From: a virus
Direction: 5' to 3' (one strand)
DNA length: 49,172 bases
Virus record (IMG/VR): IMGVR_UViG_3300017963_000082
Part shown: piece after piece, positions 1 to 24,639 of the stretch
Numbering within the stretch: the first letter of the stretch is position 1
Layout of the letters: every line of letters starts with the position of its first letter
Translations under genes and position numbers: made by a program
The notes under the pieces: model-generated
The model's input: the letters and a program-made list of their open reading frames with translations, nothing else
The model's database searches: none
What the model was told of the DNA's origin: nothing

Positions 1-123
1 GCGCTGGTTGTCTCGATTGCTTCCTGTTCCAATGTGAACCCGTAGCGCACCTCCTCAGATGCTACCTGAAAGTCAGTCTGTGCTGCCACCTGCCGCTTGA
101 GTGAGTTCTCAAATTCGTCCAGA
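1..123. repeat. Contig-terminal direct repeat, copy 1. It is identical to 49050..49172 and marks the overlap of a circular, permuted or terminally redundant genome with a 49,049-bp unit.
   Basis: Read directly: both copies run gcgctggttgtctcgattgc ... caaattcgtccaga. The repeat lies inside an open reading frame (tape measure), so it is not a cos end. Confidence 0.95.
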
Positions 124-1575: not shown

Positions 1576-2043
1576 CTAGCTGCTGATGGTTGAACGGAAC
1601 AGCCGCGCCGCACGCACCGTGAACCCTGCTGGCGTCGGACCACCCGTCCCTGCGTCCATCTCTGGGTAGACGATCTGCGTCATCAGCGCGCCGGTCGCCT
1701 GGTACTGCTCATCACCAACCGCGCCGCCCTTGGGTGACCACCGCACGCAGATTTTGGGGGAGCACTCATCCGCTACCCACTTGTCGTGCAACTGGTCCCA
1801 CGCTTCCAGCGCAACCTCGGTATAGACGATGACGAACGTCAGATCGATCGGCTGCAGCTTGCCGCCCTCGATGATCGCGCCCTGCCCGTCCAGCGTGTAC
1901 ATCACATCGTTGAGCCGGTCCTGCGTCGGCTGTGCCAGCGATGTACTTTCGCCCGAAATGTCCACCCAGGACCCCGAGCAATCCGCCGTCAGGTTGATCT
2001 CTAGCTTTCCACAACTCCTTGGAACTGCGCCACTCGTCTGCAT
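1576..2043 (-). CDS. Putative major tail (tube) protein.
   Basis: A 155-aa beta-rich ORF immediately upstream of the chaperone pair. The assignment rests on position and size only. Confidence 0.5.
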   Translation of the reverse strand: MQTSGAVPRSCGKLEINLTADCSGSWVDISGESTSLAQPTQDRLNDVMYTLDGQGAIIEGGKLQPIDLTFVIVYTEVALEAWDQLHDKWVADECSPKICVRWSPKGGAVGDEQYQATGALMTQIVYPEMDAGTGGPTPAGFTVRAARLFRSTISS

Positions 2044-2409: not shown

Positions 2410-2876
2410 CAGAATACCTCCATCACCAGGACAAACCGGATGCCAGAATAGAGAAGCGACTGGCGGTCAAAGATCACCCGCTCCGCCGTCCAGTGGATGT
2501 TACGGATAAATTCGTTGCCAAAAATCGGGCACCCGGCCCCGCCCGCCGCGCCACTTTCCAGCCGGTCCTCGATTGCATCCCAGCAGTCAACCACGTCCTC
2601 CATGTTCTCGTCGATCTGGTTACGGGTATGCACATAGACGTCAACGTGTACGGTCAGGCTATGCACACGCACGCCTTTGGATAGCGTGGTTGCGTCCGTC
2701 TCTGTGCGGCTGTCTACCTCCAAATTCTCCGGGTAGACCTCGAGCAGCGGATAGTCGGGCATTCCCTCCTTGATCTCGTTATAGTTGTCTGCCAAGATCG
2801 TGAGCCCGTTCGCCGTCGTGATGCCCGTCAGCGCCGTTGTAGTGTCTGTGCAGATTTCCGCTATGGTGACTGCCAC
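2409..2876 (-). CDS. Putative tail terminator or neck protein.
   Basis: A 155-aa ORF between the HK97-gp10-like gene and the tail tube. Its start shares base 2876 with the stop of the upstream gene. Confidence 0.45.
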   Translation of the reverse strand: MAVTIAEICTDTTTALTGITTANGLTILADNYNEIKEGMPDYPLLEVYPENLEVDSRTETDATTLSKGVRVHSLTVHVDVYVHTRNQIDENMEDVVDCWDAIEDRLESGAAGGAGCPIFGNEFIRNIHWTAERVIFDRQSLLYSGIRFVLVMEVF

Positions 2877-3397
2877 TATTTCCTCACTATCGCGTCTAGT
2901 GCGCGGTCCATTATGCGCTTGATCTGTTCCCGCCGGTCCTCTAGTGCGCCTTGGAGGAAACGCTTTGCCTTGACGCCCGCTATTCTGATAGCCTTGCGTG
3001 CTTTCCCGGCAAGTAATCCAGCGGCTTGAACATTGCCCTTTTCCTTACGCATTGCCCACCTGAACAGAGGCCCCCACTTTGCCCAAAACGGACGGGTACC
3101 CAATTCCTGATAGGGCGCGTATTTCAGATTCGAGCCCACGACGCCCTGGATCGTCTTTGGTGCCAGCGTGCGGATCTCCGGCGTGATACTGGCCCGCAGT
3201 CGTCCCCGATCCCGTGGTGCTTTCTTTTTCGCCACACGTTCCACGGCGAGGGTAGACTTTGCGACCGCAGCCACCAGCGGGGACCCCTCATCCCCCCTCA
3301 AATCCTTTGCCACAATCTCCATTTTGCGCTGCACCTCTCGCAGCCCCTTGGTCGTGATCTTGACCTCGCTCATTCGGTCATCGGCGGACGAATCCAC
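2876..3397 (-). CDS. HK97 gp10-family head-tail joining protein.
   Basis: Contains KGLREVQRKMEIVAKDL...RDRGRLRASITPEI...VGSNLKYAPYQELGT, the typical gp10-family signature (xxYAxYxExGT). Confidence 0.7.
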   Translation of the reverse strand: MDSSADDRMSEVKITTKGLREVQRKMEIVAKDLRGDEGSPLVAAVAKSTLAVERVAKKKAPRDRGRLRASITPEIRTLAPKTIQGVVGSNLKYAPYQELGTRPFWAKWGPLFRWAMRKEKGNVQAAGLLAGKARKAIRIAGVKAKRFLQGALEDRREQIKRIMDRALDAIVRK

Positions 3398-4068
3398 CGC
3401 CCCATCCTGAGAATGAATTGCACATCTGGGTCCAATGCCTGCGTGAAGCGCAACTCTCCCAAGTCCGTTGTCGCCAGGCTATCAGCCATCCCCACCTTTA
3501 GCCGCTCGAACCAGCGGGCGGCCTGCATAATGGTCGCCTGCTTGATCGCGTCGGGGACAGCCGCGGCATAGCCCCACCTGGCGGTCACTTGCACCGTTGG
3601 TTCCCGGTATTGTCCATCGTGTTCGTGGTAGCGCGTGTCGGGCCATAGGTGAGTGGCAGACGACCCACTCCCTGACGTGAATACTGCCTCACTCCCGCTG
3701 ATAGTGACCACGAGCAAGGTGTACGGCGTCCCGTAGAACTTGGGGAAGTCCGGGGCGCCCCTTGCCGCATTCCAGTCAGTCGCAGCCCACGCGGTATAGG
3801 TCGTGTCAGACGGTGACTCTTTGACCGCTACTGAGTCGATCTGGATGCATTCGTCTATCATCAGAAACCGGTTGCCACTGCCCACATACGCGCGCGCCAC
3901 CGCCGCATCCGGGGCAACATAGCCGTCCTCGATCCGGTTGGTGTAGCCGTCTATTGCCCGCGAGGCCGCACCCAACAGAACATCCAGCACGCCATCGCTG
4001 GCATTCTTGTCCTTCTCAATCTCCGATCTCAGTTCTAGAGCCGTCGCGTATACCGCTGTACTTGCCAT
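3370..4068 (-). CDS. Head-tail connector/adaptor, gp6-like N-terminus with an extended C-terminus.
   Basis: The N-terminus ATALELRSEIEKDKNASDGVLDVLLGAASRAIDGYTNR resembles gp6-like connector proteins. Its position in the neck block supports this. Confidence 0.55.
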   Translation of the reverse strand: MASTAVYATALELRSEIEKDKNASDGVLDVLLGAASRAIDGYTNRIEDGYVAPDAAVARAYVGSGNRFLMIDECIQIDSVAVKESPSDTTYTAWAATDWNAARGAPDFPKFYGTPYTLLVVTISGSEAVFTSGSGSSATHLWPDTRYHEHDGQYREPTVQVTARWGYAAAVPDAIKQATIMQAARWFERLKVGMADSLATTDLGELRFTQALDPDVQFILRMGRWIRPPMTE

Positions 4069-6123: not shown

Positions 6124-6882
6124 CTACTTTACGTACTCTTGTCTAGATCCCATCGTGTCCGACTGGCGGTGCATATCCGCTGCTGTCACGTCCACGTCTA
6201 GCCCGGAGGTCTCCGCGCCGGAGAACAGCCCCGAAGCGTTGGTATAGTCCCGGTACAGCCGGATTTGCACGATGTCCGATAGTTCTGCCGCTGCGGGCGG
6301 CGTGATTGCCATTCCGCTATCCAGGATCTGGTTCAACGTCCCGGCGGCATAGGTAAAGATCGGCGTTGACAACGGCACATTGGTCCACGCTGCCGTCTTT
6401 GCCTGCCCGTTGACCTGCCAGCGGTAGCCGATCAAGAAATTGGGCTGTTCTGCGTTCGCTTGCCACAAGTGGACGTGAAACTCTACATCTGACTGCACAA
6501 GCCAATCGTGGTTCACCTGGACGTTGTAGACCACGTAATCCGTCGGGTAGCGTGCGCTGTCCTCAAAAGTGATGCTTCCCTCTGCCAAGTTCTGCACGAT
6601 GTCTGACGCGGGAGACTGTAGGCGAGAGGCCAAAAGCGGCCCTAGTTCATCGCGCCAGGTGGTCGCATCCCCATGCGCCTGCATTGTCCCGTCGGCTTCG
6701 AACTCGGTATAGTCACCGCCCGCGACGTCCCCGACTGTCAGAGTAGAGAACGACCCCGGAAAGTCACCGCCAGTCGAGGCGTCATAGACCACCTCGGCGT
6801 GCGTCCCATCGCCCATGTCCCGATAACGTGTTTGCATCGTGGACGGGACCGATTCGCCTTGCTTCAGTACAATGTCTGCCAT
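6124..6882 (-). CDS. Fibre/decoration-like protein carrying the shared N-terminal module (copy C).
   Basis: The N-terminus MADIVLKQGESVPSTMQTRYRDMGDGTHAEVV is paralogous to the two genes upstream. The C-terminal ~215 aa are a unique beta-rich domain. Confidence 0.65.
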   Translation of the reverse strand: MADIVLKQGESVPSTMQTRYRDMGDGTHAEVVYDASTGGDFPGSFSTLTVGDVAGGDYTEFEADGTMQAHGDATTWRDELGPLLASRLQSPASDIVQNLAEGSITFEDSARYPTDYVVYNVQVNHDWLVQSDVEFHVHLWQANAEQPNFLIGYRWQVNGQAKTAAWTNVPLSTPIFTYAAGTLNQILDSGMAITPPAAAELSDIVQIRLYRDYTNASGLFSGAETSGLDVDVTAADMHRQSDTMGSRQEYVK

Positions 6883-6883
6883 C

Positions 6884-7108
6884 TTAACCCCTCGTCAGCA
6901 CGAGCGCGTGTGTCCCATCGCTCATATCCTGATACCTTGTTTGCATTGCGGACGGTATAGACTGCCCTTGGGAGAGCACGATGTCTGTGCCGCCGCTGCC
7001 TGCCCGGAAACTGATCACGCGGGCGTATGTCCCATCGCCCATATCGCGGTATCTAGTCTGCATTGTCGCGGGCACCGATTGCCCTTGTGTTAGCACGATG
7101 TCAGCCAT
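6884..7108 (-). CDS. 74-aa protein made only of two tandem copies of the shared module.
   Basis: The two copies are MADIVLTQGQSVPATMQTRYRDMGDGTYARVI and TDIVLSQGQSIPSAMQTRYQDMSDGTHALVL. Confidence 0.65.
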   Translation of the reverse strand: MADIVLTQGQSVPATMQTRYRDMGDGTYARVISFRAGSGGTDIVLSQGQSIPSAMQTRYQDMSDGTHALVLTRG

Positions 7109-7113
7109 ACAGC

Positions 7114-7782
7114 CTAATGTCCGTGATAGAATACAAAGATCGACACAGTTGCCGATCCGCCGGTGTGTCCGTATTTCATAATCAAATCGCCACGCGCGGG
7201 CGTCACAGACCCCGCACCTGCAGGGCTGTCTAGATTCGCCCCCGTATTGACGGCTGCCACGTTTGTCTCTGCGAGATTCGAGATCCCGTGTAGCATACTG
7301 TTCCCGTTCAAATCTAGCTTGACCTGCGAGGGCACACCGCGCAGCGATTCGACGCGATCTTCCTGTGTCGCCCCATTGATGAATGGCAACCCGGCAAAGT
7401 AGTCAATATCTGCATTGGCCCCGTTGATCCTCGTAATCACGCCGAGTAATAGCTGTCCCTGCGTATTTGCGCCGAGATCAAGAGAATAATAGATGGATGT
7501 GATGTCCATCCGACTTGTGCCCTGCCCCTGGATGCGGTGCGGCCATAGCGGATTGTCCCGGTCTACCAGGATCACATAGGTGTCTGAGTTGAACGTGGCA
7601 GAGTACACCGCAAATACATCATTCTCGCGTTCCGTGACCGTGGTCCACAGTTCGCCATCTGACGTCAATTCTGCGCCAATGGATACCACCATCGCGTGCG
7701 TGCCGTCCCCCATGTCCTTGTAGCGGGTTTGTGTCCCAGACGGCAATGACTGCCCCTGGGTTAGCACCAAATCAGCCATCAT
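7114..7782 (-). CDS. Fibre/decoration-like protein carrying the shared N-terminal module (copy A).
   Basis: The N-terminus is MMADLVLTQGQSLPSGTQTRYKDMGDGTHAMVV, followed by a unique ~185-aa beta-rich C-terminal domain. Confidence 0.65.
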   Translation of the reverse strand: MMADLVLTQGQSLPSGTQTRYKDMGDGTHAMVVSIGAELTSDGELWTTVTERENDVFAVYSATFNSDTYVILVDRDNPLWPHRIQGQGTSRMDITSIYYSLDLGANTQGQLLLGVITRINGANADIDYFAGLPFINGATQEDRVESLRGVPSQVKLDLNGNSMLHGISNLAETNVAAVNTGANLDSPAGAGSVTPARGDLIMKYGHTGGSATVSIFVFYHGH

Positions 7783-8521
7783 GGTCCTCCAAGTACACGG
7801 CGAACTCTGAATCTCGAATCTTGTCCCTGACAGTGGGCCAGTCGCGGATCAGTTCCGACAACGGCTGTGGATTCACGCGCACCAGGTCACACCGCAGCGG
7901 CTCATAGCGGACCCCTAGAAACTCAACGATCTTGCGTGTCGCGCTGACCGGCACCTTGCCCGGCTTTTTGCTATCGGTGATGTCGGCATACGTCAGTTTG
8001 AGCACGCGCGGGAAATTGGCGAGTAGGCGGGACGTGCGCGCATCTCTCTGCCTCAGTCCCCGCGCCTGCTTCAAAATCGCATCTGCACTCAGTCCAATGG
8101 TCAGCGGCCCCGTGTCTTTGAACGTATGCTGTGGTCGCCTGATCTTGCCCCCGCGCGCCGCCCGGTTGATGAGTAGACTCACCGACTGCCGGACCACGTT
8201 CTCCCGCCGCAACCAAATCACCGGCGGCTTGTGTTTCTTGAGGTACTTCCACGCCTGCCCCACGAATGCCTGACTGTAAACCAATTTGCACATACTGACG
8301 TGATAGCCCTGCATATGCAGCAGGCAGTAGAGCAGTTGCCCATTGCCCGTTTGTAGATGCCGGTGCCACACGCTGCTATGGTGCAACGACTCGCCGCGGT
8401 CACAAAAGACCTGCGGGTGATTGCTCAGACAGTGCGCCAGGTAGGTGCCCCCAGAACGGACGCTGGCGATCACAACCGCAGGACGTGCCAGGTTTTTCGT
8501 CGCGTCATTCTCTAGCTTCAT
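7772..8521 (-). CDS. Sulfotransferase-like protein.
   Basis: Start set at the ATG 8519..8521, which overlaps the upstream TGA (ATGA). Contains the PAPS-loop-like VIASVRSGGTYLAHCL and the 3'-PB-like WLRRENVVRQSVS. The longer track ORF (to 8767) overlaps the previous gene by 250 nt. Confidence 0.6.
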   Translation of the reverse strand: MKLENDATKNLARPAVVIASVRSGGTYLAHCLSNHPQVFCDRGESLHHSSVWHRHLQTGNGQLLYCLLHMQGYHVSMCKLVYSQAFVGQAWKYLKKHKPPVIWLRRENVVRQSVSLLINRAARGGKIRRPQHTFKDTGPLTIGLSADAILKQARGLRQRDARTSRLLANFPRVLKLTYADITDSKKPGKVPVSATRKIVEFLGVRYEPLRCDLVRVNPQPLSELIRDWPTVRDKIRDSEFAVYLEDHDG

Positions 8522-9561
8522 TTCCTGACCCTCAATAGTGCGGCGAAACTTGTCTCTGAGCGGTTCAATGTCGGACGCTTGATGATTTTCCACTTGTGCT
8601 CTGTGTAGTAGCTGTACTCGCGCCCGCTCTTGGTCGCCGGGTCCAGATGGTTCAGAACCCCCAGGCCGAAGCCTGGCCAGTGGTGCGTCGCATCGTTGTG
8701 CGCGTTCTCGCTTTTCCAGTAGGGGAGCTTGATCTGGCACACACCGCCCGGCCTCAAGATGCGCCACACCTGGTCCATCGTGTCGTACAATGTCCGCTGT
8801 AGGTGCTCGAATACAGAGAGCGCGATCACCTTGTCAAATGAATCCTGCCGCCACGGCCACGGATAGTCCAGGTCTGCACACACATCGATCTCGCGCCTGT
8901 GCTGGATCAGGTCGTGGTTGACAGCGTAGGGCACGATCTTGTTGCCCGCACCCAGGTTCAGCACGTCCCACGGGAACCATCCGCACTGTAGCACTGCCCC
9001 CGCATTTGCCCAGCGTCCTTTCGGCGTTTGCAGCGCGGCATCCTTGGTGCATTCCTGCCATTCATTCGTCCCATCTACACGCTGCACATACCAGACGTGA
9101 TCGGCTCCCGTCTCGCCGGTTAGAATCGCCGTGTCTACCATCTTGTTGAACCCGACCGGGACCGTCGCCACAAACACGCCACCGGGGGCAAGCATCCCCT
9201 TGATGTGCCCGACGATGCGCTTGAGCGGGGCGGGCCTTGTCCGCTTGGCGTACTTGCCTTGCCCGATGTGCTCTAGCGTCGAGATGGACACGATCAGGTC
9301 GTAGGGTTCTTTTGGTTCGTGCTTCATTATGTCTATGTTGTGTACCCGCTCGCCCTTTTCGGTCAAGTCGATGATCGGCCAATCGGTCGGGCCATAATGC
9401 ATCAAGACGTTCCCGATCTCGAGTATGCGCCGCCGCTTGTCTGCCAGGTAGCGGCGGATAATGGGCACCTCCACGCTCCGCAGGTTCAAGGATGCGTTGT
9501 TGTAGGCGTGGTCAAAGTGCTTGAACTCGGTGCCTCGGAATGTGAACGGGGGACGGCTCAT
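8518..9561 (-). CDS. Protein with two tandem class-I SAM-dependent methyltransferase domains.
   Basis: Start set at the ATG 9559..9561, in an ATGA overlap with the GT stop. Domain 1 is ILEIGNV...DLIVSISTLEHI...LAPGGVFV. Domain 2 is VLNLGAGNK...DKVIALSVFEHL...LRPGGVCQI. Confidence 0.65.
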   Translation of the reverse strand: MSRPPFTFRGTEFKHFDHAYNNASLNLRSVEVPIIRRYLADKRRRILEIGNVLMHYGPTDWPIIDLTEKGERVHNIDIMKHEPKEPYDLIVSISTLEHIGQGKYAKRTRPAPLKRIVGHIKGMLAPGGVFVATVPVGFNKMVDTAILTGETGADHVWYVQRVDGTNEWQECTKDAALQTPKGRWANAGAVLQCGWFPWDVLNLGAGNKIVPYAVNHDLIQHRREIDVCADLDYPWPWRQDSFDKVIALSVFEHLQRTLYDTMDQVWRILRPGGVCQIKLPYWKSENAHNDATHHWPGFGLGVLNHLDPATKSGREYSYYTEHKWKIIKRPTLNRSETSFAALLRVRK

Positions 9562-11273
9562 CGCTTCGCCCTTCCCGTCGGATGTGCGGCAAGAAACTTG
9601 TCCACCATCGCCCACGCCTCGGGGTCAGTCAACCCCTTCCCTGTGGGCACCTGTCCTTCCCATCGGCGCGCGCGCCCAACGAAATGCAGCACACCGGCAC
9701 TCCCCTTGATCCCCGGCGGGTACTGTTGCCCCTTCCAGGTAATGAGCGTGTTCCACTCGTTGCACAGCCACAGCACACGCAGCGGCTCCGTGTACATCGC
9801 CCGGATGAACGCCCCCTGGTCGCGCCCCTTGTGGACGTTCCACTCGTCAAGCCACCGCTTGAAAAATGCCTTTGTCCGCTTGCACCGCCGGAACCCCCAC
9901 ACGCCGCCGTTGATCTGCAGCGCCTCGGTGGTCCCGAGTTGGTTGATCGTCCGCGTGTACTCCTCGGTGTTGTTGCGCCGCTGAAAGTCCTTCATTGTGT
10001 CTTTCAGATGCGCGTCCTTGCAGATCACGAACTCCCACCCGTCAGCCAGCCAGTCAAAATACACACGCGGATCATCTTTGGTGACCTCAATATCGGCGTC
10101 CAGGTAGAGAATGGATTTCCACTCTTGCGGTGCCAGGTCGTACACGCTCAACTTGGCAATGCGCCCACCAATGTCAGCATCGCGGAACTGGATCGGGATG
10201 TCCTCGTTGCCCAGTGGCTTGTCACTGACGACGGCGACCGGTACGCCTGGCATATTGGCGTGTATCGTGTCCACCAGCCGCTTGGCACACATCCGCGCCG
10301 GTAGGCCAAACGCGACACAGTAGATCCCATACTCACCATCCACCAATTCGATCGGCTTGATCTTCGGCTTGTTGTAGGTCTTGGCTTCGTGCTCCGGTGT
10401 GTGCTTGCCCAGGAACTCGGCGAACGCGGCATCGTTGGCATCACACCACGCCGCCACACTATGCGGTTTGGTCGCTGTCCGCAGCGCCTTTCGGTCCACG
10501 GTGCCCAGTTCGTCAAGCGCGGTCTTGAGCGCCTGTTCTAGCCCGCGTGCATCGCCCTTGTCGTAGCGGTAGATCCCGTGCGTGTCCGGTAGTTCATCGT
10601 GCAGGCCCACGCCGCGAGGGATGACCACCGACACGCCGCAGCTCATCGCCTCAAGCGTCGTCATCGGGCCGCCCTCGACGGACGACGTACACACGAACAC
10701 GTCAAGCGACTGGTAGAATTTGGGCATATCGTCCCACCGGTACATCTTTGTAGGACACGGCCACCCGCGCCCCGACGCCTTGAATGTGGCGCGATCTGCG
10801 AACTTGCGCACGAGGCGCTTGGCTAGATGCTCGCCCTTGCGCCCACTCTTGTACAGGTAGCCCGAGAACCCAACCACGGGAGTGCCGCCCGTTTTGCGGC
10901 CTGCGCTAATCGTGAACCTCTCCCCTTCCAGCGGTAGCGGGAACCGCAACGTTGTCCCGTGGCGCTTCTCTACTTGTGCCCGGTACATCTCATTCATACA
11001 TACGCGGATGTCGGCTGTCTGTGCCGATCTGTGGAATGCCTTGACCTTGCCACTATTCGGATCGTCCTCTAGGTGCGTCAGGTAGGTTGCTACCGGCGTC
11101 TCGCGGAACCCGGCGAACTTGTGGTGCTCAAAGTAGGCGACCATGTAGTTTAGGTCTGCCTGCGGGTTTGGCGTGTCGCTCACAGTCCACCCGTTGTGCT
11201 GCACGAGATAGCGGACAAATCGCGGCAACACGCGGTCATCTCTCCAATTCCGGCACACGATATGGATGTTCAA
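9558..11273 (-). CDS. Bifunctional glycosyltransferase: an N-terminal GT-B (GT4-like) domain plus a C-terminal GT-A (GT8-like) domain.
   Basis: The E-x7-E motif is VEGGPMTTLEAMSCG. The C-terminal half has YLDADI (DxD) and ...INGGVWGFRR...RDQGAFIRA..., paralogous to 11274..11885. The TTG start lies directly after the upstream TAG. Confidence 0.7.
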   Translation of the reverse strand: MNIHIVCRNWRDDRVLPRFVRYLVQHNGWTVSDTPNPQADLNYMVAYFEHHKFAGFRETPVATYLTHLEDDPNSGKVKAFHRSAQTADIRVCMNEMYRAQVEKRHGTTLRFPLPLEGERFTISAGRKTGGTPVVGFSGYLYKSGRKGEHLAKRLVRKFADRATFKASGRGWPCPTKMYRWDDMPKFYQSLDVFVCTSSVEGGPMTTLEAMSCGVSVVIPRGVGLHDELPDTHGIYRYDKGDARGLEQALKTALDELGTVDRKALRTATKPHSVAAWCDANDAAFAEFLGKHTPEHEAKTYNKPKIKPIELVDGEYGIYCVAFGLPARMCAKRLVDTIHANMPGVPVAVVSDKPLGNEDIPIQFRDADIGGRIAKLSVYDLAPQEWKSILYLDADIEVTKDDPRVYFDWLADGWEFVICKDAHLKDTMKDFQRRNNTEEYTRTINQLGTTEALQINGGVWGFRRCKRTKAFFKRWLDEWNVHKGRDQGAFIRAMYTEPLRVLWLCNEWNTLITWKGQQYPPGIKGSAGVLHFVGRARRWEGQVPTGKGLTDPEAWAMVDKFLAAHPTGRAKR

Positions 11274-11885
11274 CTAGTTGTCCCTCGCTGTTCCGTAGTT
11301 ATGGGCCACAACCGCGCCGCCATTCCAGGGATAGCCCAGCAGCCAGATTTTGACCGGTACTCTGTTCAGCGCCCGCAGTAGTGCCCCCTGATCCTGATTC
11401 TTGAACCGTAGCCACTCATCGCGCCACGCCTCAAAGAATCGCGCCACTTGCTCAGACTTGCGAAACCAGAACACGCCCGCCTGTAGCTGCAGCGATGTTC
11501 CAACCTCGTCAAGCGTCGCCGTCCGGTCGCGGTCATCGCAGTGCCACAGCCAGTCACGTCCCTGCTTCTCGCTGGGGACGATGACCATATCCCACCCGTC
11601 CTCAAGCATCTTGAACCCGACCTCTACATCTGAGTGCTGCGTGTGCGTGTCGGCGTCCATGTAGAGCGTGTCATCGTAGGGGCTCCACTGGTCAAGGTTC
11701 GTCTTTGCCCAGCGGGACATCTGGACGCTGTTCATCCCTCGCGGGTTGTCGGCTAGTCCCTGCGACCGGTCCAGGTCCATCAGGTCAGTCTCGAGATCGG
11801 TGTATTCACCCAGGCGTACACGCGCGCCCTCGTAGGCTTCTACCGCCTTGCGCCCAATGGCGACGTAGCAGACGCCTCGGGTCAC
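11274..11885 (-). CDS. GT-A fold (GT8-like) glycosyltransferase.
   Basis: The GTG start at 11883..11885 overlaps the upstream TGA (GTGA). Contains YMDADT (DxD), ...LQAGVFWFRK...QDQGALLRA.... Confidence 0.6.
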   Translation of the reverse strand: MTRGVCYVAIGRKAVEAYEGARVRLGEYTDLETDLMDLDRSQGLADNPRGMNSVQMSRWAKTNLDQWSPYDDTLYMDADTHTQHSDVEVGFKMLEDGWDMVIVPSEKQGRDWLWHCDDRDRTATLDEVGTSLQLQAGVFWFRKSEQVARFFEAWRDEWLRFKNQDQGALLRALNRVPVKIWLLGYPWNGGAVVAHNYGTARDN

Positions 11886-12577
11886 GGGTGTCCCTCCCCC
11901 GCTATCCACGTCACCGGTAGCGCGCAAATGATCGGCTTGGTCTGGTATAGCGCGCGCATAAAGGCCAGCTTGTCACTCTTTCCCCGTTCACGCTCTGCCA
12001 TCCACGCATCGATCAGGTCTTGCGTCTGTGGGCACCGGCGCACGTACACCAGCCCTGACTCATAGACCGGCACGCGGAGATCGTGGATCACCTCCCTCGT
12101 TAGTTCCTGATCCTCTGGGGTCCCTATGCCGCTAGCGAGTTTGCGGTAGCGCCACAGTGGCGCGGCGACCTGCCAGCCAGACGTCAGCCGATGAAAGCCG
12201 ACCATCATCAACTCAGTGCGCAGCGGCGTCCCTACGTCCCAGAGTAGCGTCTGTGGGTAGGGGAGCGATGGAGGCCCAGTCTGTACGTCAAGTTGATCCC
12301 CAAAACGCGAGGTGATCAACTCTTGCCCAGCCCCCACATCGCCTCCGGTGATGACCACCCCGCACGAGGCCAGGGAGACCACCTTGGCCCGGATGTCGCT
12401 GCGTAGGATCTCAGCCTGACCGCTAGCCACCCACAGGCGCGCCGTCTGCTTTTTGACCGCGACCCACTCACCAGCGAGATACCGCTGCATATGGTTGTGA
12501 TCGTCTGGCAACGTCTTTGACGTTAGCAGCCTGACCCAAACTTTGCCCATGTCCGACCTTTCAGAATGAGGGGGCAT
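11882..12577 (-). CDS. Hypothetical protein, the first gene of the glycan-island block.
   Basis: A 231-aa ORF with the SD GAGGGGG 5 nt upstream of the ATG at 12577. Its stop is coupled to the GT gene. No motif is recognised. Confidence 0.55.
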   Translation of the reverse strand: MPPHSERSDMGKVWVRLLTSKTLPDDHNHMQRYLAGEWVAVKKQTARLWVASGQAEILRSDIRAKVVSLASCGVVITGGDVGAGQELITSRFGDQLDVQTGPPSLPYPQTLLWDVGTPLRTELMMVGFHRLTSGWQVAAPLWRYRKLASGIGTPEDQELTREVIHDLRVPVYESGLVYVRRCPQTQDLIDAWMAERERGKSDKLAFMRALYQTKPIICALPVTWIAGEGHP

Positions 12578-12609
12578 TGCTACCCCCTCACTGTACTGTT
12601 GCTGCTGTG

Positions 12610-13047
12610 CTACGGTACGATCTCACCCCAGCGCGTAGTCGGGACCGGCTCGTAGTCGGCAACCAGTCCGAACAGGAAGTAGGCGAGTTCGACCTGTGCG
12701 TTGGCAACGGTGAACCGGACCTGGACGTAGGCATTGCCCGGCGTCAGTTCTTCGTTGCGCAGGCTGATGATGGGGCACTCGTCGCCGTCACCGCCAGCCT
12801 GGGTGAGCTGCGTGATCGCTTTGCCGGCGATCAGTGCCGCCCCGGTGCCTGCCGCGTCCGACGCTTCCCACAATTCCGCGTCAAGCGTTGCGCCCTGTGC
12901 CATATCGCCCACAGAGAGAACCAGCGCCTCGCGGTGGTACCGCCCGACATTCACCCACGCTGAAACATACGCGGCGGCGCCAAACGCATCGGCGGGCTCG
13001 TGCAACAGCGGGTCCATGTACTCGTATGGTGCTCGTGTAAATTCCAT
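12610..13047 (-). CDS. Hypothetical head-associated protein, a possible decoration or accessory protein.
   Basis: A 145-aa ORF immediately after the major capsid gene, with the SD GAGGAGGC upstream. Confidence 0.55.
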   Translation of the reverse strand: MEFTRAPYEYMDPLLHEPADAFGAAAYVSAWVNVGRYHREALVLSVGDMAQGATLDAELWEASDAAGTGAALIAGKAITQLTQAGGDGDECPIISLRNEELTPGNAYVQVRFTVANAQVELAYFLFGLVADYEPVPTTRWGEIVP

Positions 13048-13065
13048 CTTGTGATGCCTCCTCAG

Positions 13066-13087
13066 TAGGGGGACCGTGGTCCCCCTA
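13066..13087 (-). other. GC-rich stem-loop between the major capsid gene and the next gene.
   Basis: tagggggacc gt ggtcccccta forms 10 perfect pairs. No U-tract follows on the minus strand. It is a likely mRNA-stability or partial-termination element. Confidence 0.5.
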
Positions 13088-13104
13088 TGTTATCGTTGAT
13101 CAGT

Positions 13105-14436
13105 TTAGGTGGCTACAGTGTCACCCAAAACCACGAAAGGCGAAACTTGAGTAGAACCGTCGCTGTACGTAAACGGTGCGGACATCCACGGGTTACCGCC
13201 AACGCGATGCACGGAGCGCCACGCGGTCACGTCCCGTCGGAACTGGTAGTGCTTGGATGCGTCGATCGTGGTCGCCTGGCGGTCGCCGATCAGGTACTTG
13301 GACCAGTCAGCCAACAGGATCGAGCCCGTGACGCCCGGAAGCGGCATATGCTCAGACCATACAATCGGGTATCCAAAGAGGAACTGCGGGATGCTCTCGC
13401 GCACGTTGTCGATGAACACGTAGGACGGGTTAGCCGCAGGTCCGGCGATCTCGATGATGTTGTTCATCCACTGACGGGAGATCATCCAAACCGGATCCAC
13501 GCCCATAAACGCCTCGAGCATATTGGCAAAGTCGGTCACAGAGACCGCATTTGCCGCCTGGGGTGCCACGACAAGGGTCGGGGCATTCAGTGCCGCAGCG
13601 TTGACCACGCCCAGGGGCTGGCCTGCTCCGGTGCCGTTGATGAATGCCTCCTCCTCGTACCAGTCGGTGGTCTGCTGGAACAGGGACGAAAGCAGCGCCT
13701 CCAGGCTGATGATGCTGTCGCCCAAAAGCTCATCGCTGGCCTCGGTGTAGATCGCCAGCTTGTAGGCGACAAGCAATTTCTGCCGGAAGCTGGGCTCTGA
13801 CTCGTTCTTTTCCGTGGCTTCCTCGGTCCACTGCGCGATCATCCCGCCAAACCAGTTGGGCTGGCCGGATGTGGTCCCGGTCTGGTCAAGCACCGGGAAC
13901 TGGATCGCACGGCTGCGCATCGGGATCACGGTCGCCCGCTGGCGAACCACGTTCGGTGTGCCGGGGACCGCTAGAAGCTGCGTGCTCTGCTCGTTCGGCA
14001 CAAGATAGCCACCAGACGCGCCGATAGCCTCAACCAGATCCTTGGCTTCAAGCCAGCCGTTATTCAGGGCCTTTCCGGTATCCGGCTCGTTCGGGTCGCT
14101 GTGGATCTTGAGACCGGGATGCAACATCCCCTTGAACGATGCGACATACACCGCTTGCAGGAACTCGCCCAAATTCTTGAACTCGGCCTGGTTCGGCGTC
14201 TTTGGGTCGTAGCCCTGCCGATCCGAGTACTGAGCAACGGCGGTCTTGGATTCCGTCAGCTTGGCGTACTTTTCGAGGTCGCTGTTGACCTCGGCCATAC
14301 GCTCAAACATCCGGTCCAACTTTTCCTTGTCCTCAGCGGTCGCGGCCTTGTTGCCCATGATCTCTTCGGCGTCGTGGATCAGTTTCAGTTGCTCCTCTCG
14401 GAGCGCTTTTTGCTGGTCGTTCAACATAGTGCTCAT
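13105..14436 (-). CDS. Major capsid protein, HK97 fold.
   Basis: A 443-aa protein with a coiled N-terminal delta-like region (LREEQLKLIHDAEEIM...). It contains ...GASGGYLVP... and ...LGDSIISLEALL... and follows the prohead protease gene. Confidence 0.85.
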   Translation of the reverse strand: MSTMLNDQQKALREEQLKLIHDAEEIMGNKAATAEDKEKLDRMFERMAEVNSDLEKYAKLTESKTAVAQYSDRQGYDPKTPNQAEFKNLGEFLQAVYVASFKGMLHPGLKIHSDPNEPDTGKALNNGWLEAKDLVEAIGASGGYLVPNEQSTQLLAVPGTPNVVRQRATVIPMRSRAIQFPVLDQTGTTSGQPNWFGGMIAQWTEEATEKNESEPSFRQKLLVAYKLAIYTEASDELLGDSIISLEALLSSLFQQTTDWYEEEAFINGTGAGQPLGVVNAAALNAPTLVVAPQAANAVSVTDFANMLEAFMGVDPVWMISRQWMNNIIEIAGPAANPSYVFIDNVRESIPQFLFGYPIVWSEHMPLPGVTGSILLADWSKYLIGDRQATTIDASKHYQFRRDVTAWRSVHRVGGNPWMSAPFTYSDGSTQVSPFVVLGDTVAT

Positions 14437-14437
14437 T

Positions 14438-16135
14438 CTAAACCTCCAAAGATGGATACTGTTGTGCTTTGAGTTTGAATAGCTGTAGTGTTCTCAGCCT
14501 ATCCGCCTCGGAGGTGGGTGGTTCAACCGGCCCGGCCTCGTCCACGTCGCTGTCATCTGCGGCCCCTTCCTGGGGTGCAGCCATTTGCTTGTCTGCGTCC
14601 TCGGCAACCGGTTCAACCTCTGCCAACATCGCTTCGAGGTCGGACAGTGCCGCTTGTACATTGTTGATCGCTCCACGGATACGCTCCATTCGTGCGGCGC
14701 TGATTGCACGGCCTACTTTGGCTTCGCTGTTTAGCAACCGTCCCATCCGCGCCATTGGTTCATCAGTCATTGAATCCAGACGAATATCAGCTACCCCCTC
14801 GGGCATTCCAGAGTTAAGCGCGTCTAATGCGTCTCCTATCGCTGCGGACAATCCTATTCTTTGCTCTTGCGTCAAAAATCCGGCAATGATCATATCGTCT
14901 GCGAACATAGTAAAGACACGATGAATCAGGCCAGTCAACGTATCACCTAGCCGCCGAATAGGACGACCGTCTGATCCTAGTTCTTTCGCCGCTTTCGCTT
15001 TCTCCCACGGCGGCACGATGTTGTCATCGTCAAACTGTTCACGCATCCGGGCATAGTAGCGAGAGACGCGCCGCCTGATCTGCTCCTGGTCTGCTTCGGG
15101 AATGTCCACCCCGCCCCTTGCGCCTTCGAGCACAGCCGCGACCGCAAAGATCCCACGCGGGATCGCCGTCAACTCGCCGCCCACATCGTCGGCAAAGGCC
15201 AGCTTGTATGATCCAAACATCTCGGGCGCTTCCCCATCGTACCAGAAAAAGCCGTCCTTGTAGCTGTCGCTGGGCTCCTCATCTGAACCCGTCACGCGCC
15301 GGATGCCCTGTATCGCCTCTGCACTGTCCCAGGCGCGATCTCTGTCAGCAATGGGTAGATCGGTCGCCCCAGAGACCACTTTCTGCTCTGCGTCGTCTGT
15401 GGGGGCTGTCGTGTCGGGATCGGTGGCCTTTGCACTGACAACAGAGGTCGCCGGGTTCATCCCCCAGATCACATTGCTGTATTCCCAGAGGCGGATCGTC
15501 TTGAGCAGCCGTACTGCTACCTTTTCGCCGTCGATCTCTCGGAACTCCTCCTCAGTGTCCAGCGCATCATAGCCGATGGATGTCTCGGGGAGCAAGTTGC
15601 CGGCAACGAGATTGAACATATTGCGCCCGTTATCAGTATCAAGCGCGTACTGCGTTGTTGCCAGCAGTCCCCCGGTCGCCTCTGGGTAGCGTGCCGTCAC
15701 CTCAAGGGGCAATTCATCGCGCCCAATCTCACGGAGGCTTAGCGGCCTGCCAACCACGTCCAGCGCGCTGCGGTAGTTGTGCTGATCCAGCACGCGCACC
15801 CGCGATCCGTGCTCTGCGATCGTCTTGGCAAAACTACCCGGCATCACGATGTCACGCCCGTCGTCAATGATTCCGAACACGCTAACGATGTGCTCGACAA
15901 TCCCGCGCGCCTCATCAACCTCTTTGACGAATGTCGGGATCGTCTTTGTCTCAAATCCCGGGAGTGCCTTATAGTCTACTTGCTTGTTCATCGTTGCCTC
16001 ATTTGCCTGCTCATACAGGCTATTGCATACCGCGACCGCTTGCTGGCCGTCCTCCGCCGTGCCATCCTCCAGCACTTCGGGAATGCACCGTGCTACAAAA
16101 TCGTCTCTGCTCTCGCCGGGGTCAGGGGTTGGCAT
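14438..16135 (-). CDS. Prohead protease (HK97/S78-like) fused to a scaffold-like C-terminal region.
   Basis: The protease-like core is GIVEHIVSVFGIIDDGRDIVMPGSFAKTI...VRVLDQHN...IGYDALD...LWEYSNVIWGMNPAT. The long helical acidic C-terminus ends directly before the capsid gene. Confidence 0.75.
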   Translation of the reverse strand: MPTPDPGESRDDFVARCIPEVLEDGTAEDGQQAVAVCNSLYEQANEATMNKQVDYKALPGFETKTIPTFVKEVDEARGIVEHIVSVFGIIDDGRDIVMPGSFAKTIAEHGSRVRVLDQHNYRSALDVVGRPLSLREIGRDELPLEVTARYPEATGGLLATTQYALDTDNGRNMFNLVAGNLLPETSIGYDALDTEEEFREIDGEKVAVRLLKTIRLWEYSNVIWGMNPATSVVSAKATDPDTTAPTDDAEQKVVSGATDLPIADRDRAWDSAEAIQGIRRVTGSDEEPSDSYKDGFFWYDGEAPEMFGSYKLAFADDVGGELTAIPRGIFAVAAVLEGARGGVDIPEADQEQIRRRVSRYYARMREQFDDDNIVPPWEKAKAAKELGSDGRPIRRLGDTLTGLIHRVFTMFADDMIIAGFLTQEQRIGLSAAIGDALDALNSGMPEGVADIRLDSMTDEPMARMGRLLNSEAKVGRAISAARMERIRGAINNVQAALSDLEAMLAEVEPVAEDADKQMAAPQEGAADDSDVDEAGPVEPPTSEADRLRTLQLFKLKAQQYPSLEV

Positions 16136-16490: not shown

Positions 16491-16678
16491 TTCGTCTCAC
16501 TCGGCCCCAACGAGGACCGCATCGCCACACGGCTGACATAGATCGTCAGCCCACACGTGCAGGTCACAACCGCCTTGGAGTTTGGCGGGCGACCATTCAG
16601 ATCATAGGGAGTCCGGGCTTCACACCTTGGGCAGAACACCGCCCCCTTGAGTTCAATCACCTCGACGGTTGTGCTCAT
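16487..16678 (-). CDS. Small zinc-ribbon protein.
   Basis: Start set at the ATG 16676..16678, in an ATGA overlap with the portal stop. The sequence is MSTTVEVIELKGAVFCPRCE...VVTCTCGL. Confidence 0.45.
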   Translation of the reverse strand: MSTTVEVIELKGAVFCPRCEARTPYDLNGRPPNSKAVVTCTCGLTIYVSRVAMRSSLGPSETK

Positions 16679-18975
16679 TCTAGCCCTTCCATTATTACAG
16701 GAGATGGGACACATCTGCAATTGACTATATTTTCCGCGCTCGCCCCCATACTGCCATCAGTCGGGTACATCATCGGCTCCCCGCACACGATGAAAGGCTC
16801 ATCAACCGGGACAATGGACGGTGTGCCACCTGCTAGGAACTTGCCGCCCCCGGTCTTATGGCAGTCACGCACACGGTTGTCCTTTGAGTCAAGCCACTCC
16901 TTCATCTCGACGACGCCCCAGGCCTTGTAGGTCTCCATTGCCCCGGCATTGCTGGCCCGGATCGTCTCCGTGCGTGCAATCGCCTCTTTCCGATACCGCG
17001 GCGACCGGTCGATAAACCACTGCTTTTCCTGGTCGGTCAGCCTGGTCCCGTCGATGTCAAAGTCGGGATCAAGGTAGCGCTCAAACGTCACGTCAAGCTG
17101 CCGCCTCAGTTCATCGATCGTCCAGCCCTCTGCCTGTCCCTGCTCAATCAGCAGCTTCATATTGTCCGCTGTCGTCTGTAGCGGCTCCTGTGCAAACGTG
17201 AGTGCGTACTGCCTGAACCATTCCTGCGCCGCGATCGTGTCCACGTCGAATGAGAACCCGAACTCGGCATTTAGTTCCTCGGCTGTGTCGGTCATTGTCC
17301 CGCGTAGCACGGCAAAGAATTCATCCCGCCAGTTTTTCGGCGCTTGGTCCCGCCAATACGCATCCCAGTCGAGCGCGATCTGCGTCCAGTTGATGGACTG
17401 TTTCAACTCGAGCGCCTTCTTTTTGGCCTCGTTCGCCATAGCCAAAAGCGCACGCAAGTCCTTGCGCATCGCACGCTCTACAGCCTCCTGGTAACGCTCC
17501 TCCCAACTGACGGCGATACCGTCAATCTGTTTCCACAGGATGTCCTTTTGCGGCTCAGTCAGTCGGCGCCCTGTCGGCAATTGTTTGGGCTCTGGGAGAT
17601 CGCCGGCCAACATCTCCGGCAGCCCCTTGGCCCGGCTCATTTCCTCCCGGTCATCGTCCGTGGCCGTCACGTCTGCCGGTTCTTCCTGCTGAATTGCCGT
17701 CTCACGCGATCCCACCGGGACCAGGCTCAGCGGGATGTAGGCCACGTCACCGCCGGGGATGTCGCCAATGGTCAGCCCTACCGCCTGTGTCGCCTGGTTG
17801 GACGGGACGCCCATCGTCCACAACTGGTGAGCGGCCCCGATCAACTCGATCATTGCCTCTTTGAGCGCGGGCACCTGGGAGAGGTCAAACTCTACCCAGA
17901 CCTTCCGATCCGGCTCGTTGAGGTAGTATTGGTACTCTGCCTCAAACAGCCGCAGCTCTGGGACAAACGTGTCCTGCCAAAATGCAGACCGCGCCTCTTT
18001 GTAATTGGCATACGTCGCGCGCGCCAGACCTACCCGAGATCCGATCAAAATGGGAGGCACACCGAACGGCCGCAGGATGCGCGTCTCGTTGCGTTCGTCG
18101 ATGCCGTCAAAGCCCAGATCATCGAACTGGTAGCCGAGTGTGTTGATCTCGCCCTCATCACCCAGGACGACCGGGCGCAGCCACCCCTCCTCACTGCCTC
18201 CATACGCCTCTGCGTACCGGGCGCGCACGCGGGACACGTGTTCTGGCGTCAAGGGCACGTTGTATTTGACGTACGTGTTCGGCATCAAGCCCCGGTCAAA
18301 TAGCCTCTTGAGGAAATTCGTCACCGAGTTATCCACGTCCGCATTGCGTGCCAGCGGTGCGATCGGCGGGAACCCGTAGCCCATCCCCTCGAGCGGATCG
18401 CCAGGGTTCGCTAGCTTGGTGTGCATCATATCTTCAGCCAGAATCGGGACACCATCCGCGCGCGTCTTGCCCTCTGGTACATACAGATAGCCGACCTGAA
18501 TGCGCCCCTTGTCCGTGAACGGCACAATGCGCACGCGATCGGGACGCAGGTTGATCATCTCCTGTACGGCCTTCGTGCCCCGCTCACGCATCAGGACAGT
18601 GAAATTGTTGCCGGAGAGATTCAGGTACACGGTCCCCTGCTGCTGGAACTCGTCAAAGGATTGGTGACTGTTTGGCCTCTCAAGCAATTTGGACAAGGTG
18701 TCATCTGGCCCGAGCTGTTCCTTGTGTTCCTTGTCCCCCGTCCAGGCACGGATAGGCGCAGACGATGACGCACGCATTTTGTAGGCGATCGCCGAGTAGA
18801 TCAGGCTGTTGATCGTCCAGCCCTCGGCGACAAATGTGTTGTAATCGTACATCTGCCACTGAGGGACGCCGGAACGGTACGCAGGCCACGCGATCGGTCC
18901 CGCTTTGACCTGCGGGTAGCCGTGGCGAAAGACGTTGATCGCTGCCCGTGCTCTCTGTACGATGGTTGGTTTCAT
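16675..18975 (-). CDS. Portal protein fused to a Mu F / SPP1 gp7-like minor head domain.
   Basis: A 766-aa ORF. The N-terminal ~450 aa fit a portal by size and position. The C-terminus RTETIRASNAGAMETYKAWGV...WLDSKDNRVRDCH...ENIVNCRCVPSP is the MuF-type signature. Confidence 0.8.
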   Translation of the reverse strand: MKPTIVQRARAAINVFRHGYPQVKAGPIAWPAYRSGVPQWQMYDYNTFVAEGWTINSLIYSAIAYKMRASSSAPIRAWTGDKEHKEQLGPDDTLSKLLERPNSHQSFDEFQQQGTVYLNLSGNNFTVLMRERGTKAVQEMINLRPDRVRIVPFTDKGRIQVGYLYVPEGKTRADGVPILAEDMMHTKLANPGDPLEGMGYGFPPIAPLARNADVDNSVTNFLKRLFDRGLMPNTYVKYNVPLTPEHVSRVRARYAEAYGGSEEGWLRPVVLGDEGEINTLGYQFDDLGFDGIDERNETRILRPFGVPPILIGSRVGLARATYANYKEARSAFWQDTFVPELRLFEAEYQYYLNEPDRKVWVEFDLSQVPALKEAMIELIGAAHQLWTMGVPSNQATQAVGLTIGDIPGGDVAYIPLSLVPVGSRETAIQQEEPADVTATDDDREEMSRAKGLPEMLAGDLPEPKQLPTGRRLTEPQKDILWKQIDGIAVSWEERYQEAVERAMRKDLRALLAMANEAKKKALELKQSINWTQIALDWDAYWRDQAPKNWRDEFFAVLRGTMTDTAEELNAEFGFSFDVDTIAAQEWFRQYALTFAQEPLQTTADNMKLLIEQGQAEGWTIDELRRQLDVTFERYLDPDFDIDGTRLTDQEKQWFIDRSPRYRKEAIARTETIRASNAGAMETYKAWGVVEMKEWLDSKDNRVRDCHKTGGGKFLAGGTPSIVPVDEPFIVCGEPMMYPTDGSMGASAENIVNCRCVPSPVIMEGLE

Positions 18976-22552: not shown

Positions 22553-22729
22553 CTATGCGGGGGTTTCCTGTTTCGCCTTCCCCTTCCTATACTGTGGGCA
22601 GCCCTTGCGGTCAAAGCTACCGCGGCACTGGCTCACGAGCGCGGTACAGTTCAGGCAGATATTGATCTCCCGCTGCTTGGGGTTGTAGTTCAGCCGCGGC
22701 GTGGTCGTAGTCTTGGGTTTGGGGGTCAT
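22553..22729 (-). CDS. Small basic Cys-rich protein (58 aa), positioned where a late-gene regulator would be expected.
   Basis: It is not in the ORF track (<60 aa). The ATG at 22727..22729 overlaps the methylase TGA (ATGA), with the SD GGAGGTG upstream. The sequence is MTPKPKTTTTPRLNYNPKQREINICLNCTALVSQCRGSFDRKGCPQYRKGKAKQETPA. Confidence 0.5.
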   Translation of the reverse strand: MTPKPKTTTTPRLNYNPKQREINICLNCTALVSQCRGSFDRKGCPQYRKGKAKQETPA

Positions 22730-24532: not shown

Positions 24533-24639
24533 TTCCTCCGGGTGGGGGCGTTCCGATCCATTCCACCCCCACCCTATAACGCGCCGGTTTCGGATGCACT
24601 GCCTGACCTCTACTCTCTCGGCTATGCCCGGCGCGTTGA

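Follow-up and report, generated by a model that had tools for sequence, protein, structure and literature searches.

The virus record IMGVR_UViG_3300017963_000082 is a 49,172-nucleotide sequence (hereafter the window, that is, the whole stretch of DNA that was analysed), and its minus strand carries an island of five genes (12577-7772) lying between the major capsid and 145-amino-acid (aa) protein genes on one side and a set of small genes on the other. An initial annotation described the island as a group of glycan-tailoring enzymes translationally coupled within the head-tail structural operon, comprising three glycosyltransferase (GT) domains, a tandem methyltransferase, and a sulfotransferase, and suggested that these enzymes modify virion proteins. 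In this study, we characterized the five genes, their relatives in metagenomes, and the possible targets of the encoded enzymes. The five open reading frames (ORFs) are consecutive and lie where they had been placed, and all of the motifs quoted for them (E-x7-E, YMDADT, YLDADI, SVRSGGTYL, and RRENVVRQSVS) are present and conserved.

Four junctions with overlapping stops and starts had been listed for the island. All four are present on the minus strand, namely GTGA at 11885-11882, TAG followed by TTG at 11276-11271, and ATGA at both 9561-9558 and 8521-8518, but the TAG and TTG codons directly abut and do not overlap. Coupling extends beyond that list, in that the stop codon of the sulfotransferase gene lies within ATGATGGCTGA (7782-7772), where the following gene also begins. 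Upstream of every start there is a separate Shine-Dalgarno-like motif (GGAGG/GAGGG type), and no terminator-like site was found on the coding strand within 7772-12540. The upstream side of the island is uncoupled: a stable 12-bp hairpin (12565-12592, minus strand; fold of -26.9 kcal/mol, z = -3.2) separates the 145-aa gene from the first island gene. Because this hairpin buries the ATG at 12577, and because the homologue of the first island protein in a related locus (L001) begins at the equivalent of the ATG at 12550 (MGKVWV...), the latter is more likely to be the true start, and the first island protein probably has 222 rather than the annotated 231 residues. We refer to it below as the 231-aa protein.

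The location of the island between the capsid and connector genes was correct in its order, but neither neighbour is immediate. On the capsid side, the gene for a 145-aa conserved head-module protein (12610-13047, minus strand; phrog_28483, PHROG match at 3.5e-22, function not assigned) intervenes between the island and the gene for the HK97-fold major capsid protein (13105-14436, minus strand; Pfam Phage_capsid, 1e-45). Since relatives that have no transferases (L166, L170, and L174-L176) also keep the 145-aa gene beside the capsid gene, it is not specific to the island. On the connector side, six small minus-strand genes without family assignment (7782-4579) precede the head-tail adaptor gene (3370-4068, minus strand). 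A second hairpin lies directly 3' of the capsid stop codon (13065-13089, minus strand; -20.9 kcal/mol, z = -2.6). It has no T-run on the minus strand and is therefore not a canonical terminator; it is possibly an attenuator or a stabiliser that lowers the expression of the downstream genes. The tight coupling of the island and its place within the late head operon were thus borne out, and the island is predicted to be transcribed with the late head genes. A recent horizontal import of the island was considered and rejected, since its GC content and codon usage match those of the rest of the genome.

The central gene of the island (9558-11273, minus strand) encodes a 571-aa fusion of a GT4 domain (residues 1 to ~290) with a GT8-like domain of the GT-A type (residues ~315-571). 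The annotated GT4 domain matched Pfam Glyco_trans_1_4 (40.6 bits; cut-off 27) and Glycos_transf_1 (38.6 bits; cut-off 26.4), with the GT4 match covering residues 179-254. Its E-x7-E motif is VEGGPMTTLEAM, the two glutamates of which (E200 and E208) do not vary among 23 diverse homologues, and the domain is a predicted retaining GT-B transferase. The protein is conserved from residue 1 onward, including invariant D13, R14, P17, and R18, which supports the TTG start and the 571-aa form and indicates that the public gene call P0001 (557 aa) is too short. A stand-alone GT4 gene, the product of which is 52-56% identical to the phage GT4 domain, was observed in Acidobacteriota contigs of metagenome-assembled genomes (MAGs) of up to 1.9 Mb (L014, L016, L019, and L026). 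In L016, it lies among housekeeping genes (for an MnmA-like tRNA methyltransferase and NAD synthase), and we therefore take it to be a close cellular relative of the phage domain.

The C-terminal domain of the fusion is paralogous, as had been proposed, to the 203-aa GT-A protein encoded upstream of it (11274-11885, minus strand), with 30% identity and E = 3e-21. Both keep the DxD (Asp-x-Asp) motif, as YLDADI in the fusion and YMDADT in the 203-aa protein: D392 and D394 are invariant in the GT-A domain of 23 fusion homologues, as are D77 and D79 in the 203-aa family. The C-terminal domain scored below the Pfam cut-offs for Nucleotid_trans (19.9 bits; cut-off 22) and Glyco_transf_8 (17.2 bits; cut-off 24.3), and the 203-aa protein had no Pfam match. 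Searched against PDB, a profile of the GT-A family found glycogenin-2 (4.8e-4) and glycogenin-1 (1.3e-3 to 9e-3) as its only significant matches, followed by a weaker one to the Skp1 alpha-galactosyltransferase (E = 0.12), and the GT-A assignment of the 203-aa protein is thus upheld in a GT8/glycogenin-like form. These GT8 enzymes, the nearest solved relatives of the family, are cytoplasmic and glycosylate proteins; the similarity to them is limited to about 40-60 residues comprising the DxD region and the QDQG-like segment that follows it.

The 231-aa protein (11882-12577, start probably at 12550; minus strand) had been annotated as unknown, and it had no match in Pfam, PHROG, or NCBIfam. It proved to be a distant GT-A paralogue, aligning to the 203-aa protein over 124 residues (27% identity, E = 4e-7), and iterated profiles built from the three GT-A sequences converged on the same ORFs. 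In the 231-aa protein, DVG replaces the DxD motif, which is missing from all 109 members of its family in the fetched loci described below. Because the motif is absent throughout the family, we assign the protein to the GT-A fold lineage only and not to active GT8 enzymes. It is conserved, probably a non-catalytic derivative of the GT-A fold, and a core member of the module.

The fourth gene (8518-9561, minus strand) encodes a class I S-adenosylmethionine (SAM) methyltransferase, the two domains of which were confirmed by Pfam matches above the cut-offs. Methyltransf_12 matched in two stretches (45 bits; cut-off 30), Methyltransf_23 matched residues 80-135 (35.6 bits; cut-off 27), and Methyltransf_11 matched residues 227-275 (38.6 bits; cut-off 21.2). 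Motif I of the C-terminal domain is canonical (LNLGAGN). Many relatives encode the two halves by separate genes, and the sulfotransferase gene is often placed between these. We also observed natural fusions of a class I methyltransferase with a sulfotransferase of the island type (database proteins P0194 and P0199, ~430 aa), which link the two tailoring activities. Domains like the C-terminal one occur together with repeated GT4-like domains in giant cellular proteins (900-3000 aa) from Desulfobacteraceae, Fibrobacterota, and Vicinamibacterales MAGs (L029-L036), and these proteins resemble polysaccharide-polymerising enzymes.

The last island gene (7772-8521, minus strand) encodes a putative 3'-phosphoadenosine-5'-phosphosulfate (PAPS)-type, Sulfotransfer_3-like enzyme. 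The sequence evidence for the annotated sulfotransferase was weak: the Sulfotransfer_3 match was below the Pfam cut-off (21.1 bits against 27, E = 4e-4), although many homologues do have a precomputed PF13469 match, and profile searches of PDB gave marginal matches to CurM-ST and Stf0 (E = 0.1-1.3) amid chance matches to ribosomal proteins. Proof from sequence comparison was therefore abandoned, and structure prediction settled the assignment. The AlphaFold2 model had a mean predicted local distance difference test (pLDDT) score of 94.5 and a predicted template modelling (pTM) score of 0.91, and its best 23 Foldseek matches in PDB were all sulfotransferases, including heparan sulfate 3-O-sulfotransferase (HS 3-OST), tyrosylprotein sulfotransferase (TPST), Stf0, and CurM ST, with E values down to 9e-5 and template modelling (TM) scores of ~0.45-0.56. 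R22, G24, and T26 of the 5'-phosphosulfate-binding (5'-PSB) motif (RSGGT), as well as R106 and S115 of the 3'-phosphate-binding (3'-PB) motif (RRENVVRQSVS), are invariant in 35 homologues, and E44, a candidate catalytic base, is kept in at least 90% of them. The island enzyme thus has the predicted fold and both motifs in common with the Sulfotransfer_3, Stf0, CurM-ST, HS 3-OST, and TPST enzymes, and its sequence similarity to them is marginal. On the strength of the model, we are confident that the product has a sulfotransferase fold with intact PAPS-binding motifs.

The island is not confined to this genome but is a widespread modular cassette of uncultured siphophages. The fusion protein has at least 453 full-length homologues in metagenomes (46-84% identity) and accounts for 142 clusters (E<=1e-30) in a set of 1.84 billion representative proteins. 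None of the fusion, the 203-aa GT-A protein, and the sulfotransferase had a tblastn match in 50,697 GenBank phage records, the 6-kb region had no near-identical match in cultured phages, and the capsid protein had cultured-phage relatives at no more than 34% identity. The best of these belongs to Streptomyces phage Dagobah, in which no transferase is annotated behind the capsid gene. We fetched 120 loci by their match to the fusion and mapped profiles of the window proteins onto them; the informative loci were the 59 that extend 3.5 kb or more upstream of the fusion gene and the 60 that extend 3 kb or more downstream. Judged from gene content, versions of the cassette are present in about a hundred related uncultured phages.

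An HK97-type capsid gene lies upstream on the same strand in 56 of the 59 loci. It is the direct neighbour of the fusion gene in 44 of these, and in the remaining 12 only the 145-aa gene and two small GT-A-family genes intervene. The latter arrangement (layout A) is that of the clade of the window, with the order capsid, 145-aa protein, DxD-less paralogue, GT-A, fusion, methyltransferase, optional sulfotransferase, module proteins (described below), and adaptor. In the majority of loci (layout B), the capsid gene is followed by the fusion, an optional N-terminal-type methyltransferase, an optional sulfotransferase, a C-terminal-type methyltransferase, the DxD-less paralogue, other genes, and the neck gene. 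Capsid proteins of the two layouts are ~18-20% identical and their terminases and portals differ, whereas their fusion enzymes are 46-50% identical. Among the loci informative downstream, the C-terminal-type methyltransferase was present in 54 of 60, the sulfotransferase in 23, and the N-terminal-type methyltransferase in 9; the DxD-less paralogue occurs in both layouts.

Sampling from the capsid side gave a complementary picture. Relatives at 39-68% capsid identity nearly always carry the DxD-less and GT-A genes, and the rest is variable. At 34% capsid identity, L166 represents an empty site, in which the capsid gene, the 145-aa gene, and the adaptor gene follow each other with nothing between; in still more distant capsid relatives, the island genes are absent. 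At the same site, the sister phage L156 (8969-13091) carries a weak GT2-like gene, a TOD1/MUCI70-like transferase (1e-19), two uncharacterised proteins, a Sulfotransfer_1 enzyme (3.8e-12), and a Methyltransf_24 enzyme. Its sulfotransferase belongs to a family other than that of the window enzyme, and its methyltransferase is likewise unrelated. The cassette of L005 has an additional hexapeptide acyltransferase and a Methyltransf_24 enzyme. Because the same functional classes replace each other non-orthologously, a glycan with methyl and sulfate groups appears to be the function selected at this site, which is independent support for that reading. From these gene contents we infer that the cassette acts like a hypervariable glycan locus, with a core (fusion, DxD-less paralogue, and C-terminal-type methyltransferase) and exchangeable tailoring genes. 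MAG labels of the relatives are mostly Chloroflexota, but they are heterogeneous and in part implausible (e.g., a 'Thermoprotei' bin); one relative lies within a 198-kb Caldilineaceae contig. The hosts are probably not Actinobacteria.

That phages glycosylate their virions with enzymes of their own was reportedly first shown in 2023 by Freeman et al., who are reported to have judged this rare outside actinobacteriophages, and virion glycans of this kind are so far known from phages of mycobacteria only. According to papers that cite this work, the O-linked glycans of mycobacteriophages are made by phage transferases and attached at the C-termini of the capsid and tail-tube subunits (PMC12619734), Corndog-like cluster O mycobacteriophages encode an O-methyltransferase followed by three transferases that modify the capsid and the tail tube (PMC11600133), and F1 phages of the Che8 type have their transferase genes near the right genome end (PMC11256854). 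The initial annotation knew of no described enzyme set for a methylated and sulfated glycan built within a structural operon; the cluster O phages already combine glycosyltransferases with an O-methyltransferase in virion modification (PMC11600133), and relative to them the sulfation and the families of the enzymes are new. A phage virion-glycosylation system is characterized by glycosyltransferases of the phage, to which an O-methyltransferase may be added, and such enzymes were found here: like the mycobacteriophage systems, the island encodes soluble glycosyltransferases accompanied by a methyltransferase. The translated capsid protein and putative tail-tube protein of the window end in Ser/Thr, which parallels the C-terminal sites in mycobacteriophages. 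The differences are that the island enzymes have no detectable similarity to the mycobacteriophage ones in the tblastn search of the phage records, that the island genes are translationally coupled to one another and follow the capsid gene instead of lying near the right genome end, and that it includes the GT4-GT8 fusion, the conserved DxD-less paralogue, and the sulfotransferase. Our literature search on phage sulfotransferases and capsid-adjacent transferases returned nothing relevant, including no report of a sulfotransferase in a phage structural operon.

In chlorovirus PBCV-1, virus-encoded, multi-domain cytoplasmic enzymes (A064R and A111/114R) assemble the glycans on the major capsid protein and also O-methylate them, and A064R, like the island, joins transferase domains (two) with a methyltransferase in a capsid-glycan machinery (PMC7826918). 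PBCV-1 is, unlike the phage of the window, a eukaryotic giant virus with N-linked glycans, a double-jelly-roll capsid protein, unrelated enzymes, no sulfation, and genes outside any capsid operon. What is new here is the combination of enzyme families without detectable similarity to cultured-phage proteins, the GT4-GT8 fusion with its DxD-less partner, the persistent linkage to the capsid gene, the sulfotransferase, and the breadth of occurrence in uncultured phages.

We consider the major capsid protein to be the most likely prime acceptor, at or near its C-terminal Ser/Thr, because the capsid gene is the sole structural gene that always accompanies the enzymes. The capsid protein of the window ends in ...GDTVAT, and many layout-B capsid proteins end in ...GS. 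C-terminal Ser/Thr occurs in 97 of 123 unique transferase-linked capsid proteins and in 2 of 9 relatives without transferases (Fisher p = 9e-4), in a test that ignores shared ancestry and has a control group of nine. A second candidate acceptor is the putative major tail (tube) protein (1576-2043, minus strand), which ends in ...FRSTISS. It had no family profile match, and its identity is suggested by position, that is, by its place ahead of chaperone-like and tape-measure genes in synteny with L003 and L005.

The proteins encoded immediately downstream (7782-5387) had been proposed as acceptors in the initial annotation, and the idea that the same enzymes glycosylate these proteins and not the capsid has several points in its favour. 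The sulfotransferase gene is in translational coupling with the gene that follows it, the proteins contain 16-20% Ser/Thr against 9-12% in the enzymes, and the empty-site relative L166 has neither the enzymes nor these proteins. Moreover, the products of three consecutive genes have a ~38-aa N-terminal module in common (MADxxLxQGQxLPxxxxTRYxDMGDGTHA; four copies in the window), and such a conserved repeat might be used for recognition. These genes, all on the minus strand, encode a 222-aa protein with one N-terminal module (7114-7782; its start overlaps the sulfotransferase stop), a 74-aa protein consisting of two copies (6884-7108; two hidden Markov model domains in the L003 homologue), and a 252-aa protein in which the module precedes a beta-sandwich like that of a carbohydrate-binding module (CBM) (6124-6882; AlphaFold2 pLDDT 87). 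In related phages (L001, L003, L004, L043, L052, L114, and L121), the module is joined to differing, unrelated C-terminal domains and, judged from this pattern, looks like an exchangeable virion anchor.

The module proteins are clade-specific, however: among the first 120 loci fetched, they were recognized in just 5-11, and on this count they are less convincing as acceptors than the capsid protein. In layout B, that is, in most loci, the enzyme core follows the capsid gene directly with no detectable homologue of these proteins nearby. The C-terminal ~200 residues of the 252-aa protein are widely conserved (176 database homologues, no Pfam family), with invariant His125, His136, and His138, and the Foldseek matches of the modelled domain were, with modest TM scores, to CBM36/27/6/35, to domain III of Cry toxins, and to C-terminal domains of viral collagen-repeat fibre and tail-fibre proteins. 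The resemblance of this one modelled domain to a carbohydrate-binding module or fibre tip suggests a reader of the glycan over an acceptor. Taken together, the module proteins look, from their predicted structure and shared anchor, like surface decoration or fibre proteins, the CBM-like ones could be readers of the glycan, and their being the targets in place of the capsid seems unlikely.

A related question is whether the sulfotransferase is of the protein-tyrosine type (TPST/RaxST-like) and acts directly on a virion protein, for which the Tyr in the TRYxDMGDG segment of the anchor module would be a possible site. Foldseek ranked tyrosylprotein sulfotransferases (8w5z, 3ap3, and 9wwe) level with carbohydrate 3-O-sulfotransferases, the 5'-PSB motif of the island enzyme uses Arg (RSGGT), as does that of TPST, and the conserved Tyr of the anchor module stands beside acidic residues. 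On the other hand, the sulfotransferase also occurs in layout-B loci that lack the module proteins, and the methyltransferases of the glycan cassette are its neighbours or its fusion partners. The exchange in L156, where a Sulfotransfer_1 enzyme lies next to other transferases, likewise fits glycan tailoring and not the tyrosine type, and we regard direct tyrosine sulfation as quite improbable.

We propose, with a probability of roughly 55%, that the island is a phage-encoded cytoplasmic virion-glycosylation cassette belonging to the head module. A virion-directed function is favoured because linkage to the capsid gene is near-universal, and this linkage spans differing terminase and portal types. 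The lack of transmembrane segments in the island proteins and the protein-directed, cytoplasmic nature of the nearest solved GT8 relatives also speak for the proposal. In the proposed mechanism, the two hairpins would hold enzyme levels under those of the capsid protein, and retaining-type transferases (one GT4 and two DxD-bearing GT8-like domains) would use host nucleotide sugars to assemble a short glycan that is O-linked to a virion protein. The DxD-less GT-A paralogue may be a partner without catalytic activity or a subunit that confers specificity. The two SAM-methyltransferase domains would then O-methylate the glycan and the PAPS-dependent sulfotransferase would add sulfate, which would result in a methylated, anionic glycan coat. 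A fuller version of this proposal is that a large group of uncultured siphophages, probably of Chloroflexota and other environmental bacteria, bears an O-methylated and, in some lineages, sulfated glycan on the C-terminal Ser/Thr of the capsid protein and perhaps on the tail tube, produced by a hypervariable, O-antigen-like cassette locked to the capsid gene; we put this version forward tentatively.

Several observations weigh against the proposal. Motif I of the N-terminal methyltransferase domain is atypical (LEIGN(V)), the Foldseek ranking does not separate carbohydrate from protein-tyrosine sulfotransferases, and about one-fifth of the transferase-linked capsid proteins have no terminal Ser/Thr, to which the limits of the Ser/Thr comparison stated above are to be added. 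The mycobacteriophage precedent is functional and not homologous, because the island enzymes have no detectable sequence similarity to cultured-phage proteins. In addition, the lack of transmembrane segments does not distinguish between targets. None of the five island proteins has a transmembrane segment (maximum 19-residue Kyte-Doolittle hydropathy <=1.45), but soluble or peripheral GT4 and GT8 enzymes (WaaG and RfaI/RfaJ-type) also act on lipid-linked or lipopolysaccharide (LPS)-core acceptors, and envelope targets therefore stay compatible with this absence.

The enzymes could accordingly remodel a glycoconjugate of the host envelope (LPS or lipoglycan core, exopolysaccharide, or glycolipid) late in infection, with the possible effect of preventing superinfection or of keeping progeny from adhering to debris. 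GT4 and GT8 are classic families of LPS-core and polysaccharide transferases, some sulfotransferase homologues are named 'LPS sulfotransferase NodH' by JGI, and cellular relatives point in the same direction: the GT4 and methyltransferase domains recur in the giant polysaccharide-type proteins of Desulfobacteraceae and Fibrobacterota, and the 52-56% identical stand-alone GT4 homologue resides in Acidobacteriota chromosomes. However, envelope-modifying phage genes are typically expressed during lysogeny and located near the attachment site together with membrane components, as in the Gtr-type pair of flippase and transferase. Gtr-type and O-antigen-modifying prophage systems resemble the island in being phage-encoded glycan-modifying enzymes; Gtr-type serotype conversion requires membrane proteins and is expressed from the prophage, whereas the island encodes no membrane protein and is embedded and coupled in the late head operon. 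An envelope target would also leave unexplained the capsid linkage in 56 of 59 loci from very different phages. We therefore assign a low probability to this possibility and favour virion glycosylation.

The transferases might alternatively hypermodify phage DNA via hydroxymethylated bases and thereby evade restriction. DNA is a common target of phage transferases (Pyle et al. preprint 10.1101/2023.12.21.572611), and the genome contains four DNA methyltransferase genes. However, a scan of ORFs with Pfam and PHROGs, in which ORFs without matches remain, revealed no hydroxymethylase, TET/5mYOX, or base-exchange enzyme. The island lies in the head module, distant from the replication and DNA-methyltransferase genes, and DNA modification would not account for the capsid linkage either. 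We know of no precedent for O-methylation or sulfation of DNA-linked sugars, which also counts against this role, and we consider it extremely unlikely. A defence or anti-defence role was rejected as well, because PADLOC gave only a generic methyltransferase-domain match to mad2.

The window and the ~100 related loci point to virion glycosylation that is independent of, and much broader than, that in mycobacteriophages, and exchangeable methyl-, sulfo-, and acyl-transferase genes are what would be expected of a surface glycan under diversifying selection. If the proposal is true, this would be the first sulfated phage virion, and virion glycosylation would extend beyond actinobacteriophages. 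A capsid gene followed by a GT4-GT8 fusion would then be a genomic marker of glycosylated virions in metagenomes. Sulfated glycans would represent a new virion chemistry, relevant to the charge of the virions, to their binding to particles or biofilm matrix, and to the way in which hosts or grazers recognize them. The capsid C-terminal Ser/Thr would provide a concrete acceptor hypothesis that is testable by co-expression without the host, and the compact multi-domain enzymes could be of use in glycosylation engineering.

A 123-nt direct repeat is present at both ends of the window (1-123 and 49050-49172), and because of this terminal repeat we regard the window as a complete, circularly assembled siphophage genome; a tape-measure-like ORF of ~665 aa crosses the end-to-start junction. 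The late operon, on the minus strand, further comprises genes for the large terminase (20532-21815), a portal protein fused to a MuF-like domain (16675-18975), the prohead protease (14438-16135), and a Neck1/HK97-gp10-like protein (2876-3397), and its tail genes continue across the end of the window. No tRNA genes were found in the genome. The four DNA methyltransferase genes lie at 22726-23598, 23672-24694, 27702-28832, and 40472-41200, and one of them is fused to a ParB-like domain. A receiver-domain protein of the response-regulator type is encoded at 41566-42138 (Pfam Response_reg, 1.2e-12), and an 861-aa Dit-like distal-tail protein, encoded at 45632-48217, carries a Kelch or beta-propeller-like insertion.

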